From the sequence record OQ349392.1: DNA of 64,000 nucleotides. One strand, 5' to 3'. This stretch comes from Escherichia phage KIT06. Position 1 is the stretch's first letter, and each line of letters starts with the position of its first letter. Both the position numbers and the translations under genes were made by a program. The notes beneath the pieces were generated by a model. That model worked only from the letters and a program-made list of their open reading frames with translations, did not search any database and was not told the origin of the DNA. This document shows, one piece after another, positions 3,407-61,945 of this stretch.

Positions 3407-3479
3407 TGGGAATTAGCCAAGTTGGTAAGGCATAGCACTTTGACTGCTAGATGCAAAGGTTCGAGTCCTTTATTCCCAG
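3407..3479 (+). tRNA. tRNA-Gln (anticodon TTG)
   Basis: Cloverleaf folded by hand: acceptor TGGGAAT/ATTCCCA, anticodon stem TAGCA/TGCTA, loop CTTTGAC, T-loop GGTTCGAGTCC. Confidence 0.85.
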
Positions 3480-3480
3480 C

Positions 3481-3567
3481 GCGAGAATGGTCAAATTGGT
3501 AAAGGCACAGCACTTAAAATGCTGCGGAATGATTTCCTTGTGGGTTCGAGTCCCACTTCTCGCACCA
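3481..3567 (+). tRNA. tRNA-Leu (anticodon TAA)
   Basis: Acceptor GCGAGAA/TTCTCGC, loop CTTAAAA, long variable arm, encoded CCA. Confidence 0.85.
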
Positions 3568-3572
3568 AATTT

Positions 3573-3647
<75 letters not shown>

Positions 3648-3657
3648 ATTTAATTTA

Positions 3658-3731
3658 CTCCGTGTAGCTCAGTTTGGTAGAGCGTCTGCTTTGGGAGCAG
3701 AATGTCGCAGGTTCAAATCCTGCCGCGGAGA
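3658..3731 (+). tRNA. tRNA-Pro (anticodon TGG)
   Basis: Acceptor CTCCGTG/CGCGGAG, loop TTTGGGA, T-loop GGTTCAAATCC; no encoded CCA. Confidence 0.8.
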
Positions 3732-3733
3732 CT

Positions 3734-3823
3734 GGAGGCGTGGCAGAGTGGTTTAATGCACCGGTCTTGAAAACCGGCAGTCGCTCCGGCGACTCATAGG
3801 TTCAAATCCTATCGCCTCCGCCA
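3734..3823 (+). tRNA. tRNA-Ser (anticodon TGA)
   Basis: Acceptor GGAGGCG/CGCCTCC, loop CTTGAAA, long variable arm, encoded CCA. Confidence 0.85.
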
Positions 3824-3828
3824 GTTTT

Positions 3829-3904
3829 GCTGATTTAGCTCAGTAGGTAGAGCAACTCACTTGTAATGAGAAGGTCGGCGGTTCGATTCCGTCAATCAGC
3901 ACCA
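3829..3904 (+). tRNA. tRNA-Thr (anticodon TGT)
   Basis: Acceptor GCTGATT/AATCAGC, loop CTTGTAA, encoded CCA. Confidence 0.85.
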
Positions 3905-3905
3905 A

Positions 3906-3980
3906 GGCCCTGTAGCTGGAAGGTTCAAGCAAGCGACTCATAATCGCCAGATGGTGGTTCAATTCCACCCAGGGCCACCA
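3906..3980 (+). tRNA. tRNA with CAT anticodon (Ile via lysidine as in T4, or Met)
   Basis: Acceptor GGCCCTG/CAGGGCC, loop CTCATAA, encoded CCA; occupies the tRNA-Ile position of the T4 array. Confidence 0.75.
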
Positions 3981-3989
3981 AATTAATTT

Positions 3990-4076
3990 GGGGAGTTATC
4001 CCGTAGAGGTAGCGGTGTGGACTGTAAATCCATTGTCATTGCGACTCGGGTGGTTCGACTCCATCACTCCCCACCA
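3990..4076 (+). tRNA. tRNA-Tyr (anticodon GTA)
   Basis: Acceptor GGGGAGT/ACTCCCC, loop CTGTAAA, long variable arm, encoded CCA. Confidence 0.75.
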
Positions 4077-4080
4077 ATTT

Positions 4081-4155
4081 GGATGTGTAGCTCAATGGCA
4101 GAGCGATCGCCTGTTAAGCGATTGGTTATAGGTTCGAATCCTATCACGTCCGCCA
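4081..4155 (+). tRNA. tRNA-Asn (anticodon GTT)
   Basis: Acceptor GGATGTG/CACGTCC (one G-U), anticodon stem ATCGC/GCGAT, loop CTGTTAA, encoded CCA. Confidence 0.75.
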
Positions 4156-4159
4156 AATC

Positions 4160-4235
4160 CGAGGCATAGCTCAGAAGGAAGAGCAAGGACCTTCTAAGTC
4201 CTAGGTCGTAGGTTCGATCCCTATTGCCTCGACCA
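4160..4235 (+). tRNA. tRNA-Arg (anticodon TCT)
   Basis: Acceptor CGAGGCA/TGCCTCG, loop CTTCTAA, T-loop TTCGATC, encoded CCA. Confidence 0.8.
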
Positions 4236-5700: not shown

Positions 5701-6294
5701 ATGAACACACTGAAGAAAATTGTTGATTTTATTCGCACTAAACTTGGTTCTGCAATGGCTAAAAATCTATCTGTTGAAGAACAGTATACTGCTGCAGCAG
5801 CAAAACTGCTTGATAAAATTAAAGACCTAAAAACTGCTTCTGTTAAATCTATTAATGAAGAAAAACGTATTCGTGAACTTATTGTTGAAAAGAATAAACA
5901 GGCTGAATCAAAAGAGCGTGAAATTCGCAAGCTTCTTTCCGAAGGTCAAGATGTAACAATGCATGCTAAACTCGGTTTACTATATCGCCGAACAGCTGAG
6001 CAGTTGACTACTAAAGCTGACGGTTATGCTGAAATGCGAATTGAAATCGCCAAGAAAGTAGTTGAGTTAGATGATGCTCGCCAAGAACTTGCGGTTAAAT
6101 TGGAATATATCCGTGAAACTCGTGCGGCAAATGCCCTTGGAATTAGTACTGCCGATGATGTAGTTGAAATTGCAGCACTGACTAAGGTTGATATTGAAGA
6201 TACCCTTGCTCGAGTTGAAACCTTTAATGGTAATATTTCCGGGGTTGAAACTACCTCTGCCGATGTTCAGGAATACATTAATTCTCTGAAATAA
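5701..6294 (+). CDS. hypothetical coiled-coil protein
   Basis: 197 aa, heptad-rich, AAGGA ribosome-binding site. Confidence 0.5.
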
Positions 6295-6298
6295 TGAT

Positions 6299-6320
6299 AA
6301 GGGGCTTCGGCCCCTATTAC
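6299..6320 (+). terminator. UUCG-tetraloop hairpin (terminator or RNA-stabilising element)
   Basis: GGGGC-TTCG-GCCCC immediately after the stop; weak T-run. Confidence 0.5.
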
Positions 6321-6335
6321 TTGGAGTAAATAGGA

Positions 6336-6944
6336 ATGAAAATGCAAAGTGATTTCAATTCAATGTTTGAAGAGTTCCAAAGACAGGTTGATGTTCCAGA
6401 TCAATTACTAAATGCTCTTAAACGTATGGCAGAAGGACGTAATTACTATTGGGGGTCTTCATATGAAACTGATGAAAGCCTTTCTGGAAGATTTTATAAA
6501 GGTAAAAAGTCTTTAATACGTCCTGGAATACTCATTAAAAGTATTGAATCAATTCATTCATTGACGTGTGATTTTGATGTTGAATTTACTGATTTCATTT
6601 CTCCTGAATGGACAGTTTGTTATTTAAATGACGATTATGATTATCTTGGCGTTTACAGTTTAAGTGACGCATGGTTTAAACGTAATTTACAAAAGTCAAA
6701 TTTATTTTATATTGATACTACGGTAAAATTTCAGGGAAAGAAATATTTCTTTACTCTTATAGTTGATTCTGAAACAAAACATGAAAATAAACGTATTCTT
6801 AGTAAAAAGAATATCTTGACTATTGTTGATGATCTTTTTGATAAATTCGTAGAAAATCCTAATTTTGAAAGCGATTTATTATTAGAAAAATTTGTTAAGG
6901 AATGTAGAGAATATGTCAAAGCCATCACTATACCTTCCAAGTAA
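6336..6944 (+). CDS. hypothetical protein
   Basis: 202-aa ORF. Confidence 0.5.
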   Translation: MKMQSDFNSMFEEFQRQVDVPDQLLNALKRMAEGRNYYWGSSYETDESLSGRFYKGKKSLIRPGILIKSIESIHSLTCDFDVEFTDFISPEWTVCYLNDDYDYLGVYSLSDAWFKRNLQKSNLFYIDTTVKFQGKKYFFTLIVDSETKHENKRILSKKNILTIVDDLFDKFVENPNFESDLLLEKFVKECREYVKAITIPSK

Positions 6945-7661: not shown

Positions 7662-8146
7662 TTTTAAAAACTCGCTGGTATGATTTAGATGATGGGGACG
7701 ATGGCATTCCAGTTGATAGAGTTGACTGGAATGGCTGTTCCGAAGATATGAAAAATTTGTTAATTAGGGAGTTTAGAATGGGATATCAGCCAGTTAAGCC
7801 ATCTACTGCAACAGATGATAAGTTTGTATGTATTCAAAATGGCCGCGCTAAGTTAACGAACGCTGATTGGTTCACAGATAAAATTATGATTCTGTGGTAT
7901 ATTATTAGTCTTCCTGTGACATCATTCGTATTTTACTTTTTTATAAAAAATCCAATGGACAGAATAGGAGATTGGATTCTTTTAACCATACTTGTTAATA
8001 TTTTTACAGCAGCAATATTATCTGGGATATGGTACACGTTCATTGAAATGCCATGGCGGCTACGCAGACAACAAAAGATTTTTGATGAAAAGAAATATAC
8101 TCAAAATTTAAATAACTTTATCACTGAATGCAGGAAATTAAAATGA
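7658..8146 (+). CDS. membrane protein
   Basis: 162 aa, ATGA overlap, hydrophobic central segments. Confidence 0.45.
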   Translation: MILKTRWYDLDDGDDGIPVDRVDWNGCSEDMKNLLIREFRMGYQPVKPSTATDDKFVCIQNGRAKLTNADWFTDKIMILWYIISLPVTSFVFYFFIKNPMDRIGDWILLTILVNIFTAAILSGIWYTFIEMPWRLRRQQKIFDEKKYTQNLNNFITECRKLK

Positions 8147-8583
8147 AAACATTATCAGCTGGTATTATCTTTATGACAGAAGATAAAGATTTATTCATGG
8201 GACGGGTTACTGGTTCTCGTAAGCCTGGAATGATGGCACATCGCTGGGATATCCCAAAGGGCCGCGTAGAAAATTCTGATTTAAGCGCACTAGATGCAGC
8301 ACGAAGAGAATGTTTAGAAGAGACTGGTTTTAACAATTATAATCCAGACCTTCTAGAAGACCTAGGTGTATTTAAATATTCTAGTAATAAAGACTTACAT
8401 CTGTTTTATTATACGATTCCAGTAGAGCATGAGATGTTTAGAAATTGCCATTGCGAGTCTTATTTTGAAAATAAAGATGGCGTTATGATTCCAGAGATGG
8501 ATGCTTTTGCTCTTATTCCTCGTACTCAGTGGCAATATGTGATGGGTCCTTCACTTTACCGAATAATGAACAACCTCTTTTAA
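8143..8583 (+). CDS. nudE: Nudix hydrolase NudE (T4 e.1)
   Basis: Nudix box ...RRECLEETGF...; ATG 8143 overlaps upstream stop; position immediately upstream of e. Confidence 0.75.
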   Translation: MKTLSAGIIFMTEDKDLFMGRVTGSRKPGMMAHRWDIPKGRVENSDLSALDAARRECLEETGFNNYNPDLLEDLGVFKYSSNKDLHLFYYTIPVEHEMFRNCHCESYFENKDGVMIPEMDAFALIPRTQWQYVMGPSLYRIMNNLF

Positions 8584-9114
<531 letters not shown>

Positions 9115-12808: not shown

Positions 12809-13354
12809 ATGAGAAAAGCACTACTCGCTGGTCTATTGGCCATTTCTATGATGGCACATAGCTCCGAGCATACTTTCAGTAATGTCCAACTCGATAACAT
12901 GCGTTACGCGTATCAATTCGGGGAACAATTTTCTAAGGATGGAAAATATAAAACACACAAAAATATCCACAAGAGCGGATTAGGTCATATAATGGCTGCT
13001 ATTTTATGGCAAGAAAGCTCTGCCGGAGTTAATTTAAAATCTAAACCAAAGCATCATGCCTACGGAATGTTCCAAAATTATTTGCCGACCATGCGCGCAA
13101 GAGTTAAGGAACTTGGTTATAATATGACCGATGCCGAAATAAAAAGAATGTTGAATAAACGGTCCAATTCAGCTTCCTGGGCGTACATTGAACTTTCTTA
13201 TTGGTTAAATATACATAAGGGCGATATAAGAAAAGCAATATCCTCTTATAATTCGGGATGGAATGTTAAAGCAGGTTCTAAATATGCTTCTGAAGTCCTA
13301 GAAAAGGCTAACTACCTTAAAAATAATAAACTGTTGGAAATAGTAAATGACTAA
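12809..13354 (+). CDS. secreted lytic-transglycosylase-like protein (SLT motifs)
   Basis: Signal peptide MRKALLAGLLAISMMAHS; E-S...GMFQ...SYNSGWN motifs. Confidence 0.5.
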   Translation: MRKALLAGLLAISMMAHSSEHTFSNVQLDNMRYAYQFGEQFSKDGKYKTHKNIHKSGLGHIMAAILWQESSAGVNLKSKPKHHAYGMFQNYLPTMRARVKELGYNMTDAEIKRMLNKRSNSASWAYIELSYWLNIHKGDIRKAISSYNSGWNVKAGSKYASEVLEKANYLKNNKLLEIVND

Positions 13355-13688
13355 AATTTTGGTTTTATGTGTAGGATTAATTTCATTTTCTGCGTTAGCA
13401 GATATATCATATTCTGAAGTTAGAGAGTATGTAAACCGTACTGCCGCGGATTATTGTGGGAAAAATAAAGCATGCCAAGCTGAATTTGCGCAGAAATTAA
13501 TATATGCATATAAAGACGGAGAAAGAGATAAATCAAGTAGATACAAGAACGATACTTTATTAAAACGATATGCTAAAAAGTGGAATACCTTAGAATGTTC
13601 AGTTGCGGAGGAGAAAGATAAAGCCGCTTGTCATTCAATGGTTGACCGTTTAGTAGATTCTTATAATCGAGGATTGAGTACTAGATGA
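13347..13688 (+). CDS. secreted Cys-containing protein
   Basis: 113 aa, signal peptide MTKILVLCVGLISFSALA, four Cys. Confidence 0.45.
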   Translation: MTKILVLCVGLISFSALADISYSEVREYVNRTAADYCGKNKACQAEFAQKLIYAYKDGERDKSSRYKNDTLLKRYAKKWNTLECSVAEEKDKAACHSMVDRLVDSYNRGLSTR

Positions 13689-14164
13689 TTGTAAAATATA
13701 TCAAGGGCGATATTGTCGCCCTATTTCTTCAAGGTAATATTATTGCGCACGGGTGCAATTGTTTTCATACTATGGGTTCAGGTGTAGCAGGTCAATTAGC
13801 AAGGGCCTATCCTAAAATTTTAGAAATAGATAAAACTACTACCGAGTACGGTTCTCGCGATAAATTAGGCGATATGTCTATTGTTTTTAAACATAGTCCT
13901 ACGGGATTTGGTATATGCTATAACCTGTATACGCAATACGAACCGGGTCCTAATCTTGATTATGGTGCTTTAGTAAACTGCATGATAGAATTAAATCTAC
14001 AGGCAGAGACCCTTTTGTTTAAACCAGTAATTTACATTCCACGCATAGGTTGCGGTATTGCTGGCGGTGATTGGGATAAGGTTTCTAAATTAATCGATAT
14101 GTTTACTCCTGATATTGATTTAATAGTGGTGGATTATGAAAGTACATTACCCGCATCCGTTTGA
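13685..14164 (+). CDS. macro-domain-like protein (ADP-ribose binding/hydrolase fold, tentative)
   Basis: N-terminal IKGDI, glycine-rich HGCNCFHTMGSGVAGQL loop, later PRIGCGIAGG, resembling macro-domain signatures. Confidence 0.4.
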   Translation: MIVKYIKGDIVALFLQGNIIAHGCNCFHTMGSGVAGQLARAYPKILEIDKTTTEYGSRDKLGDMSIVFKHSPTGFGICYNLYTQYEPGPNLDYGALVNCMIELNLQAETLLFKPVIYIPRIGCGIAGGDWDKVSKLIDMFTPDIDLIVVDYESTLPASV

Positions 14165-14348
14165 TCCTAAAAACAAAGCGGAAATTATTCGTCAATGGGA
14201 ACGCATTTGCCGTACTAAATGCCCAATTAATAGTTCTCATGATGTAGATAAAGATTATATTGGAACATTCGTTGAATATACCTTTATTGATAGGAAAGGT
14301 CGTAAACAACATGTAGAAGAATATTGCTTAAAGGTTACATGGTTATGA
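14136..14348 (+). CDS. hypothetical protein
   Basis: 70-aa ORF overlapping upstream gene end. Confidence 0.35.
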   Translation: MKVHYPHPFDPKNKAEIIRQWERICRTKCPINSSHDVDKDYIGTFVEYTFIDRKGRKQHVEEYCLKVTWL

Positions 14349-14530
14349 GTCTGAGTAAAGAACAAAAAGATAAATTGTTTGAGCTTATCCATGAACTTCT
14401 AGATGAGCATACAGAAGCAAACACCTTTTATGATGAATACGGCCCGCTATCTCCCGAACAGCAAGAAGAATTTGCTGACCGGTTTGATAAGAAAGAAAAC
14501 GAATTAATAGCTTATGTGAATACGCTTTAA
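14324..14530 (+). CDS. hypothetical protein
   Basis: 68-aa ORF; start may be ATG 14345. Confidence 0.4.
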   Translation: MLKGYMVMSLSKEQKDKLFELIHELLDEHTEANTFYDEYGPLSPEQQEEFADRFDKKENELIAYVNTL

Positions 14531-14539
14531 GAAGGTGAT

Positions 14540-15121
14540 ATGGCGAGTTTAATTTTTACTTATGCAGCAATGAATGCTGGAAAATCTGCTTCTCTTTTGA
14601 CTGCTGCGCATAATTATAAAGAACGCGGAATGGGTGTATTAGTTCTTAAACCTGCTATTGATACTCGCGATTCTGTCTGTGAAGTCGTTTCTCGCATTGG
14701 AATTAAGCAGGAAGCGAATATTATTACGGATGATATGGATATTTTTGAGTTCTATAAATGGGCTGAAGCACAAAAAGATATTCATTGCGTATTTGTAGAT
14801 GAAGCTCAGTTTTTAAAAACTGAACAGGTGCATCAATTAAGCCGAATTGTCGATACATACAATGTTCCTGTTATGGCTTATGGTCTAAGGACTGATTTCG
14901 CTGGAAAATTATTTGAAGGTTCTAAAGAACTTTTGGCGATTGCAGATAAACTTATTGAACTAAAGGCAGTTTGTCATTGCGGTAAAAAAGCGATTATGAC
15001 GGCTCGATTAATGGAAGATGGAACACCAGTTAAAGAAGGTAATCAAATCTGTATTGGTGATGAAATTTATGTTTCTTTGTGCAGAAAACATTGGAATGAA
15101 TTAACTAAAAAGCTCGGTTAG
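14540..15121 (+). CDS. tk: thymidine kinase
   Basis: 193 aa with P-loop NAGKSAS; MASLIFTYAAMNAGKSASLL... as recalled for T4 Tk. Confidence 0.95.
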   Translation: MASLIFTYAAMNAGKSASLLTAAHNYKERGMGVLVLKPAIDTRDSVCEVVSRIGIKQEANIITDDMDIFEFYKWAEAQKDIHCVFVDEAQFLKTEQVHQLSRIVDTYNVPVMAYGLRTDFAGKLFEGSKELLAIADKLIELKAVCHCGKKAIMTARLMEDGTPVKEGNQICIGDEIYVSLCRKHWNELTKKLG

Positions 15122-54921: not shown

Positions 54922-55215
54922 ATGAAAAAATTTGTTTTTGCTGCAATTTTTGCTTTGGCTTCTTGTGCTGCTCAGCCTGCTATGGCGGGTTATGATAAAG
55001 ATTTGTGCGAATGGTCTATGACTGCAGATCAGACTGAGGTTGAAACTCAGATTGAAGCAGATATTATGAATATCGTTGAGCGTGATCGCCCTGAAATGAA
55101 AGCTGAAGTACAAAAACAGCTTAAGTCTGGTGGTGTAATGCAGTATAATTACGTTCTGTATTGTGATAAAAACTTCAATAATAAAAATATCATCGCTGAA
55201 GTAGTAGGTGAATAA
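54922..55215 (+). CDS. sp: Spackle periplasmic protein (superinfection exclusion)
   Basis: 97 aa with signal peptide MKKFVFAAIFALASCAAQPAMA... Confidence 0.85.
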   Translation: MKKFVFAAIFALASCAAQPAMAGYDKDLCEWSMTADQTEVETQIEADIMNIVERDRPEMKAEVQKQLKSGGVMQYNYVLYCDKNFNNKNIIAEVVGE

Positions 55216-55841
55216 TGCTCTATCAAATGCACAAGTGTAAAGACACGTACAATTATAAAGGTGCCCAGTGTTATATCATCAATCGTGAAAACGTGGGTCC
55301 AGGTCATTCGCATCAATCACGGTTTGTATTCGTTAAAAATAATGAAATTATAGCAGTTGCTAATTACATGCTTGTGACTAATGATGTTAATCCGGTGCCT
55401 TTTACGTATTATAATCTAATGGATTTGGCGTACGATTATAATTGGTTTAATCATGATAATTTGGCTCATATTGAAGGCGTAGGATTTGACATCTCTTATT
55501 CTAGTTACTCGTTGTGTCCTATGAGCCGAGCTCATAAAGAGCCTGAATATTTTTCATTTCGTCGGCGTGTAGACTTTGAACGCAGCACAGAGTATATCGG
55601 TGGAATTTTTGTTAAAGATAATCGAATTACTCGCATTATTTATCCTTTGGGCTGTGGTCAAAAAGATATTGATGTTGATTTAGACTTTACTGAAAACATC
55701 ATTAATCATATTGCTTCTGTGTATTTTGATATTGATCATAAAATTGTAATATGTGGATATGAATTACCATCAGAAAAACAGTCTAAAGTGAATGTTTCTA
55801 TTGATGACCAAATTTTTAATGCTTTTATGAATAGAGGTTAA
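55215..55841 (+). CDS. hypothetical protein in the T4 61.2 position (AdfA-like anti-DarT candidate by synteny)
   Basis: 208-aa ORF between sp and primase; assignment is positional only. Confidence 0.4.
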   Translation: MLYQMHKCKDTYNYKGAQCYIINRENVGPGHSHQSRFVFVKNNEIIAVANYMLVTNDVNPVPFTYYNLMDLAYDYNWFNHDNLAHIEGVGFDISYSSYSLCPMSRAHKEPEYFSFRRRVDFERSTEYIGGIFVKDNRITRIIYPLGCGQKDIDVDLDFTENIINHIASVYFDIDHKIVICGYELPSEKQSKVNVSIDDQIFNAFMNRG

Positions 55842-60696: not shown

Positions 60697-60722
60697 AGCT
60701 TCTGAAGTATATGGAGGCTATC

Positions 60723-61346
60723 ATGATTATTAATCTTGCAGATGTTGAACAGTTATCTATAAAAGCTGAAAGCGTTGATTTTCAATATGATATGTATAAA
60801 AAGGTCTGTGAAAAATTTACTGACTTTGAACAATCAGTTCTTTGGCAATGTATGGAAGCCAAAAAGAATGAATCTCTTCATCGGCAGTTGAATAAAATCA
60901 TTAAAAAGCATTTAACTAAATCACCTTATCAGCTATATCGTGGTATATCAAAATCGACAAAAGAACTCATTAAAGATTTACAAGTTGGAGAAGTGTTTTC
61001 AACGAATAGAGTAGATTCATTTACTACTAGTTTGCACACAGCATGTGGTTTTTCTTATGTTGAGTATTTCACTGAAATAATATTTCGCTTAAAAACTGAT
61101 AAAGCTTTTAATTATTCTGACCATATCAGCGATATTATACTTTCTTCTCCTAATACTGAGTTTAAGTATACATATGAAGATACTGATGGATTAGATTCAG
61201 AACGTACTGATAACTTAATGATGATTGTGCGTGAACAAGAATGGATGATTCCAATTGGAAAGTATAAAATAACTTCTATTTCAAAAGAAAAATTACACGA
61301 TTCGTTTGGAACATTTAAAGTGTATGATATTGAGGTAGTTGAATGA
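60723..61346 (+). CDS. modB: mono-ADP-ribosyltransferase ModB-like
   Basis: ATG 60723 after GGAGG; R-S-E type motifs LYRG, STN, REQEWMIP. Confidence 0.7.
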   Translation: MIINLADVEQLSIKAESVDFQYDMYKKVCEKFTDFEQSVLWQCMEAKKNESLHRQLNKIIKKHLTKSPYQLYRGISKSTKELIKDLQVGEVFSTNRVDSFTTSLHTACGFSYVEYFTEIIFRLKTDKAFNYSDHISDIILSSPNTEFKYTYEDTDGLDSERTDNLMMIVREQEWMIPIGKYKITSISKEKLHDSFGTFKVYDIEVVE

Positions 61347-61945
61347 AATATTCAGCAATGCAATTAAAAGATTTTAAAATCAAATCAATGGATGCATCGG
61401 TGCGTGCTTCTATTCGTGAAGAATTACTTTCTGAAGGATTTAATTTATCCGAAATTGAACTTTTAATTCATTGTATTACTAATAAGCCAGACGATCATTC
61501 TTGGTTAAATGAAATAATCAAATCTCGTTTGGTTCCAAACGATAAACCTCTTTGGAGAGGTGTTCCAGTTGAGACTAAGCAGGCGTTAAATCAAGGAATT
61601 GATATTATTACATTTGATAAAGTAGTATCAGCTTCATATGATAAAAATATAGCTTTACATTTTGCTTCTGGATTAGAATACAATACACAAGTTATTTTTG
61701 AATTCAAAGCTCCTATGGTATTTAATTTCCAGGAGTATGCTATAAAAGCTTTACGTTGTAAAGAATATAGTCCGAGTTTTAAATTTCCAGATAGCCATCG
61801 CTATCGTAATATGGAATTAGTTTCAGATGAACAAGAAGTAATGATACCAGCTGGAAGTGTATTTAGAATTGCGGATAGATATGAATATAAAAAGTATTCA
61901 ACATACACTATCTATACTCTTGATTTTGAAGGATTTAATCTATAA
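61343..61945 (+). CDS. modA: mono-ADP-ribosyltransferase ModA-like
   Basis: 200 aa; LWRG, SAS, DEQEVMIP motifs; paralogue of upstream gene. Confidence 0.75.
   Translation: MKYSAMQLKDFKIKSMDASVRASIREELLSEGFNLSEIELLIHCITNKPDDHSWLNEIIKSRLVPNDKPLWRGVPVETKQALNQGIDIITFDKVVSASYDKNIALHFASGLEYNTQVIFEFKAPMVFNFQEYAIKALRCKEYSPSFKFPDSHRYRNMELVSDEQEVMIPAGSVFRIADRYEYKKYSTYTIYTLDFEGFNL

Follow-up and report, generated by a model that had tools for sequence, protein, structure and literature searches.

A stand-alone macrodomain protein of Escherichia phage KIT06 and its probable role against DNA-ADP-ribosylating toxins

What does a small macrodomain protein do in a phage that also encodes ADP-ribosyltransferases, and which ADP-ribose linkage does it act on? 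This question is raised by an open reading frame (ORF) of 159 amino acids at 13685–14164 (+) in a stretch of 64,000 nucleotides from Escherichia phage KIT06 (OQ349392.1; the entire stretch is referred to as the window). A sequence-only reading had taken the ORF for a possible macro-domain protein and had proposed control of ADP-ribosylation, or defence against host toxins that ADP-ribosylate DNA, as its theme. We find it nearly certain that the ORF encodes a macrodomain and that this Tequatrovirus gene is orthologous to T4 tk.4 (adfM). We consider it probable that the KIT06 protein, Tk.4, guards the phage against DarT2 through a glutamine-type active site that hydrolyses thymidine-linked ADP-ribose on DNA. 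Hundreds of phage genomes already carry an annotation of the gene, and the counter-defence role of the T4 gene was published in 2025; the glutamine-type classification and the allele-cassette structure reported here are modest additions.

Identity and predicted fold of the ORF

Judged by its sequence, the window is Tequatrovirus DNA. The DNA around tk.4 shares 99.1% identity with Shigella phage SH-1 and at least 95% with several hundred Tequatrovirus records, and the gene order (regB, vs.1, vs, the tk.4 ORF, tk.3, tk.2, tk, rI.1, rI) is that of phage ime09 and T4. Like T4 tk.4, the ORF is flanked by vs and tk.3, and its product aligns with T4 Tk.4 over the full length, at 58% identity over 155 amino acids (E = 1e-70). 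Its ATG start codon and the stop codon of vs, the gene upstream, overlap in ATGA; at the other end, the last 29 nucleotides are shared with the start of tk.3. In GenBank the gene goes by several names, namely "Macro domain-containing protein", "phosphatase", "RNase III inhibitor" and "Poa1p-like family protein". At 90% identity or more it occurs in about 310 deposited phage genomes, and several of these name it a macro-domain protein. Scanning for sigma-70 promoters near tk.4 returned 13 sites with 15 expected, which is no excess over chance.

Sequence profiles and structure prediction agree on the fold. Tk.4 matches the Pfam Macro family (PF01661) with 32 bits (gathering score 22; E = 1.3e-7) over model positions 2–117 of 118, and PHROG 335 with E = 1.2e-71. 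All significant phmmer matches among the sequences of the PDB are macrodomains (Bt_1257, 4e-10; Poa1p, 1.6e-9; SCO6735, 8.5e-8; Mycobacterium tuberculosis DarG, 4.9e-5), and TARG1 is borderline in this search (E = 0.01). An AlphaFold2 model built with 55 homologs reached a mean predicted local distance difference test score (pLDDT) of 94.8 and a predicted template modelling score (pTM) of 0.89. Its Foldseek matches in the PDB comprise TARG1, Bt_1257, Poa1p, the DarG proteins of T. aquaticus and M. tuberculosis, and SCO6735, with E-values of 1e-8 to 1e-10 and template modelling (TM) scores of 0.7–0.76; the best match is human TARG1 (OARD1; E = 2.9e-10, TM 0.73–0.76). Tk.4 is thus predicted to adopt the three-layer alpha/beta/alpha macro fold with a central mixed sheet, and its nearest structural and profile neighbours belong to the ALC1-like class and not to the MacroD, PARG or macroH2A classes. 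The GDI and glycine-rich loop motifs on which the sequence-only reading had based its macro-domain claim are present (K7-G8-D9-I10, M30-G-S-G-V-A-G36 and G122-C-G-I-A-G-G128), the Pfam and PHROG matches are far above chance, and structure prediction bore the claim out, yielding a confident macro fold of the TARG1/DarG/SCO6735 class and not a non-macro fold. The ORF is an early-region, stand-alone macrodomain of this ALC1-like class.

A glutamine-type active site and the reaction it suggests

To assess the active site, we counted residue conservation over 121 aligned sequences of the Tk.4 family; two rows are gapped at H22–C26, leaving 119 for this segment. The active-site motif H22-G23-C24-N25-C26 (13748–13762, +) is equivalent to H24-V25-C26-N27 of SCO6735. 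N25 falls on N22 of DarG in an hhalign alignment, and H22–C26 is also aligned to SCO6735 and Bt_1257 in a multiple sequence alignment. Among the 119 family members with a residue there, H22, G23, N25 and C26 never change, while C24 is a cysteine in 115 and an alanine in four. The first glycine-rich loop, M30-G31-S32-G33-V34-A35 (13772–13789, +), is predicted to bind the substrate, contains the invariant G33 and aligns to VMGKG of DarG and WGKG of SCO6735.

The position of the catalytic lysine lies in N80-L81-Y82-T83-Q84 (13922–13936, +), where Q84 takes the place of K80 in DarG, K84 in TARG1 and Gln85 in SCO6735. Two independent alignments agree on this, an HMMER profile alignment that sets Q84 on K84 of TARG1 and an hhalign alignment with a DarG-family profile that sets it on K80 of DarG. 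When the Tk.4 family, SCO6735 and Bt_1257 are aligned together, Q84 shares an invariant column with Gln85 of SCO6735, and the residue is present in all 121 family sequences, as are D49, N80 and Y82. Plain MAFFT alignment of eight distant macrodomains put the lysine of DarG and TARG1 one or two residues off Q84; we discarded this placement because the HMMER, hhalign and family alignments agree with each other and with a structure-based alignment (PMC9411070).

The phosphate-binding loop P119-R-I-G-C-G-I-A-G-G-D-W130 (14039–14074, +) carries G122 and G124 at the positions of G126 and G128 in SCO6735. Its sequence, PRIGCGIAGGDW, has the same form as that of SCO6735 (PRIGCGLAGGTW) and Bt_1257 (PRIGCGLAGGKW), unlike TARG1 (PRIGCGLDRLQW) and DarG (PPLGVGNGGLDW). 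Residues invariant across the Tk.4 family, SCO6735 and Bt_1257 are H22, C24, N25, N80, Q84, G88, G122, G124 and W130. Both glycine-rich loops are conserved (G31-x-G33 and G122-x-G124-I-A-G-G128), and the ADP-ribose-binding cleft is predicted to lie between them. Three further residues, D49 (13829–13831), Y82 (13928–13930) and C26 (13760–13762), are invariant in the phage family and not conserved in SCO6735 or Bt_1257, and they are candidates for family-specific functional residues.

The Streptomyces coelicolor protein SCO6735, which clusters with Bt_1257, is a glutamine-type, ALC1-like macrodomain that hydrolyses thymidine-linked ADP-ribose on DNA (PMC9411070), an activity confirmed in later work (PMC12879935, PMC13036486). 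Its active site is lined by His24, Val25 and Asn27, hydrolysis is lost with either exchange of the glutamine (Q85A, Q85E), and SCO6735 rescues Escherichia coli from DarT (PMC9411070). At an identity of about 26–28%, Tk.4 has in common with SCO6735 and Bt_1257 the glutamine at the lysine position, the equivalents of His24 and Asn27, and a loop of the PRIGCGLAGGxW type with the counterparts of Gly126 and Gly128. The missing DarG lysine is therefore no argument against hydrolysis of thymidine-linked ADP-ribose; the Gln85 precedent indicates a water-mediated mechanism of the SCO6735 type. TARG1, which also cleaves thymidine-linked ADP-ribose (PMC12879935), shares with Tk.4 the AH-C start of the active-site strand and PRIGCG, but its catalytic dyad K84/D125 corresponds to Q84/A126 in Tk.4 according to the HMMER profile alignment.

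The functional evidence comes from T4. When a T4 transposon library was screened on a DarTG2-expressing host, tk.4 was the single significant hit, and a clean tk.4 knockout was sensitised to DarTG2, upon which the gene was renamed adfM, for anti-DarT factor Macrodomain (bioRxiv 10.1101/2025.11.20.689424, November 2025). Before that, T4 without adfA and adfN had been found to be still resistant to DarTG2, and a further factor had been predicted (PMC11825919). Defence against DNA-ADP-ribosylating toxins, as proposed from the sequence, is thus supported by the sensitivity of the knockout, a result that is already published and obtained with the T4 allele. We infer that the KIT06 allele acts as T4 Tk.4 does, and enzymatically. 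Host DarT2 would put ADP-ribose on thymidine of single-stranded phage DNA, and Tk.4 would hydrolyse the bond between ADP-ribose and thymidine, so that replication would be restored and the phage would escape the DarTG2 defence. The chemistry would probably be of the SCO6735 and not of the DarG type, with Q84, N25 and the H22–G23 backbone positioning the distal ribose and a water molecule and the two glycine-rich loops holding the diphosphate.

Several points weigh against hydrolysis of thymidine-linked ADP-ribose by the KIT06 protein. Tk.4 does not carry the catalytic lysine of DarG and TARG1, it scores 27.7 bits with the NCBIfam model NF048014 (cut-off 250), and with the PADLOC DarG model it reaches 27.5 bits compared with 133 for the AdfM of the PhiKZ type. 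Relative to SCO6735, the mobile loop after the glutamine is five residues shorter and contains no lysine (QYE-----PG vs QHGMKTGSKG), whereas the SCO6735 loop, five residues longer than in DarG and TARG1, is said to characterise the subclass and contributes the DNA-contacting residues Lys89 and Lys94 (PMC9411070). Gly23 (all 119 family members with a residue there) stands at the position of Val25, which is Val or Ile in the SCO6735 subclass and whose backbone has been proposed to hold the catalytic water (PMC9411070). Tk.4 is acidic, with an isoelectric point of 5.0 as opposed to 9.5 for SCO6735, and the KIT06 allele is only 58% identical to the T4 protein for which the DarTG2 phenotype was obtained. 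The authors of the T4 study infer enzymatic removal of ADP-ribose, which "seems likely" to them, without showing it (10.1101/2025.11.20.689424), and the literature that we searched yielded no biochemical assay of a protein of the Tk.4 type. Lastly, comparative genomics argues that phage Macro domains act mostly on small ADP-ribose derivatives (PMC9503650).

This last argument leads to the alternative that Tk.4 mainly processes such small molecules, be it ADP-ribose-1''-phosphate, O-acetyl-ADP-ribose or ADP-ribose-based immune signals of the Thoeris type, which we regard as unlikely. T4 tk.4 is annotated as "phosphatase; contains A1pp phosphatase motif" and PHROG 335 is labelled "phosphatase", but these labels are names derived from homology and not from tests. 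Poa1p, the yeast Appr1p phosphatase, is a close neighbour of Tk.4 in sequence and fold, the two share an H-x-C-N-C motif, and in the phmmer alignment, which is good only for residues 3–79, Poa1p His23 and Ser30 fall on H22 and T29; an H23A mutant of Poa1p is available in the PDB. However, the only Pfam match of Tk.4 is Macro, with no Poa1p-specific model, the nearest solved and characterised relatives by profile, those of the Bt_1257/SCO6735 cluster, act on DNA carrying thymidine-linked ADP-ribose, and sensitivity to DarTG2 is the only phenotype that we found reported for T4 tk.4.

The relatives of Tk.4 are not restricted to DNA. SCO6735 and TARG1 also remove Glu/Asp-linked ADP-ribose from protein and uracil-linked ADP-ribose from RNA (PMC8120803, PMC13036486, PMC9411070), modA and modB lie in the same window as tk.4, and CmdT, an mRNA ADP-ribosyltransferase, acts against T-even phages (PMC11618068). 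Tk.4 might accordingly reverse protein or RNA ADP-ribosylation, either that of the phage's own Alt/ModA/ModB or the RNAylation by ModB, or that of host toxins such as CmdT-like enzymes, but we consider this quite improbable. ModA reportedly modifies Arg265 of the RNA polymerase alpha subunits, and arginine-linked ADP-ribose is listed as a substrate of DraG/ARH enzymes and not of this macrodomain class (PMC8120803), while the adenine modification by CmdT is described as irreversible so far (PMC13036486). Furthermore, tk.4 is located about 47 kb from modA and modB in the window, and no phenotype ties it to Mod functions. Regulation of ModA/ModB as the main role of Tk.4 was rejected on the chemistry of the arginine linkage. 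Nothing was found in support of the proposed control of the phage's own ModA/ModB ADP-ribosylation.

Conservation of the active site also bears on the possibility that Tk.4 counters DarT2 mainly by a non-catalytic route, in which it would bind the toxin or shield DNA that carries ADP-ribose. The catalytically dead Q85A variant of SCO6735 remains an inhibitor of DarT in vitro, and a stronger one than dead DarG or TARG1 (PMC9411070), and the strong allelic divergence at tk.4 might be expected of a protein–protein interface in an arms race. On the other hand, conservation of all active-site residues extends over at least 121 homologs, the most distant of them about 39% identical, and suggests that catalysis has been retained, and Tk.4 with its 159 amino acids has no toxin-binding C-terminal domain like that of DarG. 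We therefore think it highly improbable that the protein works in this way.

Hydrolysis of thymidine-linked ADP-ribose being the preferred reading, the next question is which known macrodomain Tk.4 resembles most. DarG (T. aquaticus, 5M31; M. tuberculosis, 5M3I) uses the catalytic Lys80 (FPTKKHW), which lies in a T-K motif (PMC8120803), where Tk.4 has Gln84, and it continues into a C-terminal DarT-binding domain, giving about 330–340 amino acids in total. Tk.4 covers positions 2–142 of 338 in the NCBIfam DarG model and 3–144 of 329 in the PADLOC DarG model. No darT was seen beside tk.4; the neighbours are vs and tk.3, neither of which is annotated as a transferase in T4. Membership in the DarG family was rejected on these grounds: scores of about one-tenth of the cut-off, no lysine, no C-terminal domain and no adjacent darT. 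Tk.4 is not a strict member of the SCO6735 subclass either and is best described as a phage-specific, glutamine-type lineage of the ALC1-like class.

PhiKZ gp104, a DarG2-like macrodomain of a chimallivirus that is also called AdfM, was shown in vitro to strip a TNTC oligonucleotide of the ADP-ribose attached by DarT2 (2026; PMC13309987). Like Tk.4 it is an orphan phage macrodomain that counters DarTG2, and the two have the name and the inferred reaction in common. PhiKZ-type AdfM is, however, of the lysine type and truly DarG-like, with an FPTKDNW motif and 35% identity to M. tuberculosis DarG. Its representative in Pseudomonas phage SL2, gp246 (277–765 of its locus; FPTKDNW), reaches 133 bits with the PADLOC DarG model as opposed to 27–36 bits for T4-type proteins (LYTQ). 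The T4-type and PhiKZ-type proteins are two independent phage acquisitions, and the name AdfM now covers two unrelated macrodomain lineages. The label "DarG homolog" in turn hides that the T4 family has a glutamine-type, SCO6735-like site without the DarG lysine, and for catalytic-dead controls or inhibitors of T4-type AdfM the relevant mutants are Q84A or N25A and not a lysine mutant.

Outside phages, Pelagimonas phthalicica carries a Tk.4-family homolog (6001–6459 of its locus) that is about 40% identical, of the glutamine type and stand-alone. Its neighbourhood consists of housekeeping genes, with no ADP-ribosyltransferase nearby. In this it resembles SCO6735, and it argues against a recent origin from DarG. 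Another homolog checked for its bacterial neighbourhood proved to lie on a contig of a T4-like phage.

A divergent allele at the tk.4 locus

Compared with T4, tk.4 departs from its surroundings. Six further proteins were compared, three encoded near tk.4 and three elsewhere in the window, and whereas Tk.4 shares only 58% of its residues with the T4 protein, identity is 94% for Vs, 91% for Tk.3, 99% for Tk, 97% for ModA, 96% for ModB and 96% for AdfA. Pairwise DNA alignment with T4 locates the change within the gene. Identity is 95.3% in vs (13347–13684), 100% in the first 38 nucleotides of tk.4 (13685–13722), 82.9% in the following segment (13723–13798) and 54.9% in the strongly divergent interior (13799–14135, +), before it returns to 88.7% in tk.3 (14136–14348). 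In the phosphate loop, the KIT06 allele reads GCGIAGGDW and the T4 allele GAGIGKGNW, the KIT06 form being nearer to the family consensus. A deletion of 13 nucleotides relative to T4 results in a different C-terminal tail, and the overlap with tk.3, 29 nucleotides in KIT06, is four in T4.

Both alleles nevertheless occupy the same locus, fall into the same length class and fold family, and have every family-invariant residue in common. In the phage collection, with 90% identity as the lower limit, the KIT06 allele occurs in 312 records and the T4 allele in 224, and there are intermediate classes besides. From the alignments, the interior of tk.4 is best read as a swapped allele cassette, as expected of a counter-defence gene. 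Because it is one, the DarTG2 phenotype of T4 tk.4 has to be carried over a sequence difference of 42%, and with this share of positions differing from the T4 protein, caution is needed in assigning the anti-DarTG2 function to the KIT06 allele.

The divergence and the active-site type can be joined into a wider scenario, in which tk.4 is a hot spot of allele swapping whose alleles could differ in the DarT2 variants, or in the other base-ADP-ribosylating toxins, that they protect against, and T4-type AdfM is not a captured DarG but a third, phage-specific, glutamine-type ALC1-like lineage. Taken as a whole we hold this scenario to be possible but rather doubtful. As to its first part, at least two cassette types of about 58% identity may circulate in otherwise closely similar Tequatrovirus genomes. 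As to the second, the lineage would be marked by the short mobile loop, Gly23 and the family-specific invariant D49, Y82 and C26, and it could have a catalytic solution of its own for the cleavage of thymidine-linked ADP-ribose.

Within the first 38 nucleotides of tk.4 lies a perfect, GC-rich hairpin of 8 bp (13704–13722; AGGGCGAT ATT GTCGCCCT), followed by a T-rich run. It has a folding energy of −12.9 kcal/mol (z = −2.9 against shuffled sequences) and scored terminator-like on both strands. The hairpin is 100% conserved in KIT06, ime09 and T4 and is located exactly where the divergence from T4 DNA starts; it may act as an RNA element or mark a boundary of recombination.

Other genes in the window

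The sequence-only reading had placed ModA, ModB and an ORF at the position of the anti-DarT gene in the same window as the macrodomain, and all three were confirmed by their 96–97% identity to the T4 proteins. Gp61.2 or AdfA, the second anti-DarT factor (55215–55841, +), is 96% identical to T4 gp61.2 and matches the Pfam family AdfA (PF23813) with E = 5e-134. As KIT06 thus has AdfA in addition to Tk.4, its genome would combine layered anti-DarT functions. The two phage ADP-ribosyltransferases, ModB (60711–61346, +; 96% to T4 ModB) and ModA (61343–61945, +; 97% to T4 ModA), are encoded next to each other. The mechanically called start of the modB ORF (60711–60722) lies four codons upstream of the ATG at 60723 that is equivalent to the T4 start, and this ATG is, from the comparison with T4, probably the true start.

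A short distance upstream of the lysozyme gene (8620–9114), at the position of T4 nudE (e.1), the window encodes a NUDIX protein of 151 amino acids (8128–8583; Pfam E = 8.4e-14). T4 NudE hydrolyses free ADP-ribose. A possible link to tk.4 is that the substrate of the KIT06 NUDIX protein would be free ADP-ribose, the product of the macrodomain reaction.

Two smaller differences from T4 concern gene content. The gene tk.1, which in T4 lies between tk.2 and tk, is absent at 14530–14540, as it is in ime09, and the gap between tk.2 and tk measures only 9 nucleotides. The tRNA cluster at 3407–4235 comprises 10 genes, for Gln, Leu, Gly, Pro, Ser, Thr, Met (CAT), Tyr, Asn and Arg. T4 has eight tRNA genes; the Tyr and Asn tRNAs would presumably be the additional ones, and we take the CAT tRNA to be probably an Ile tRNA.
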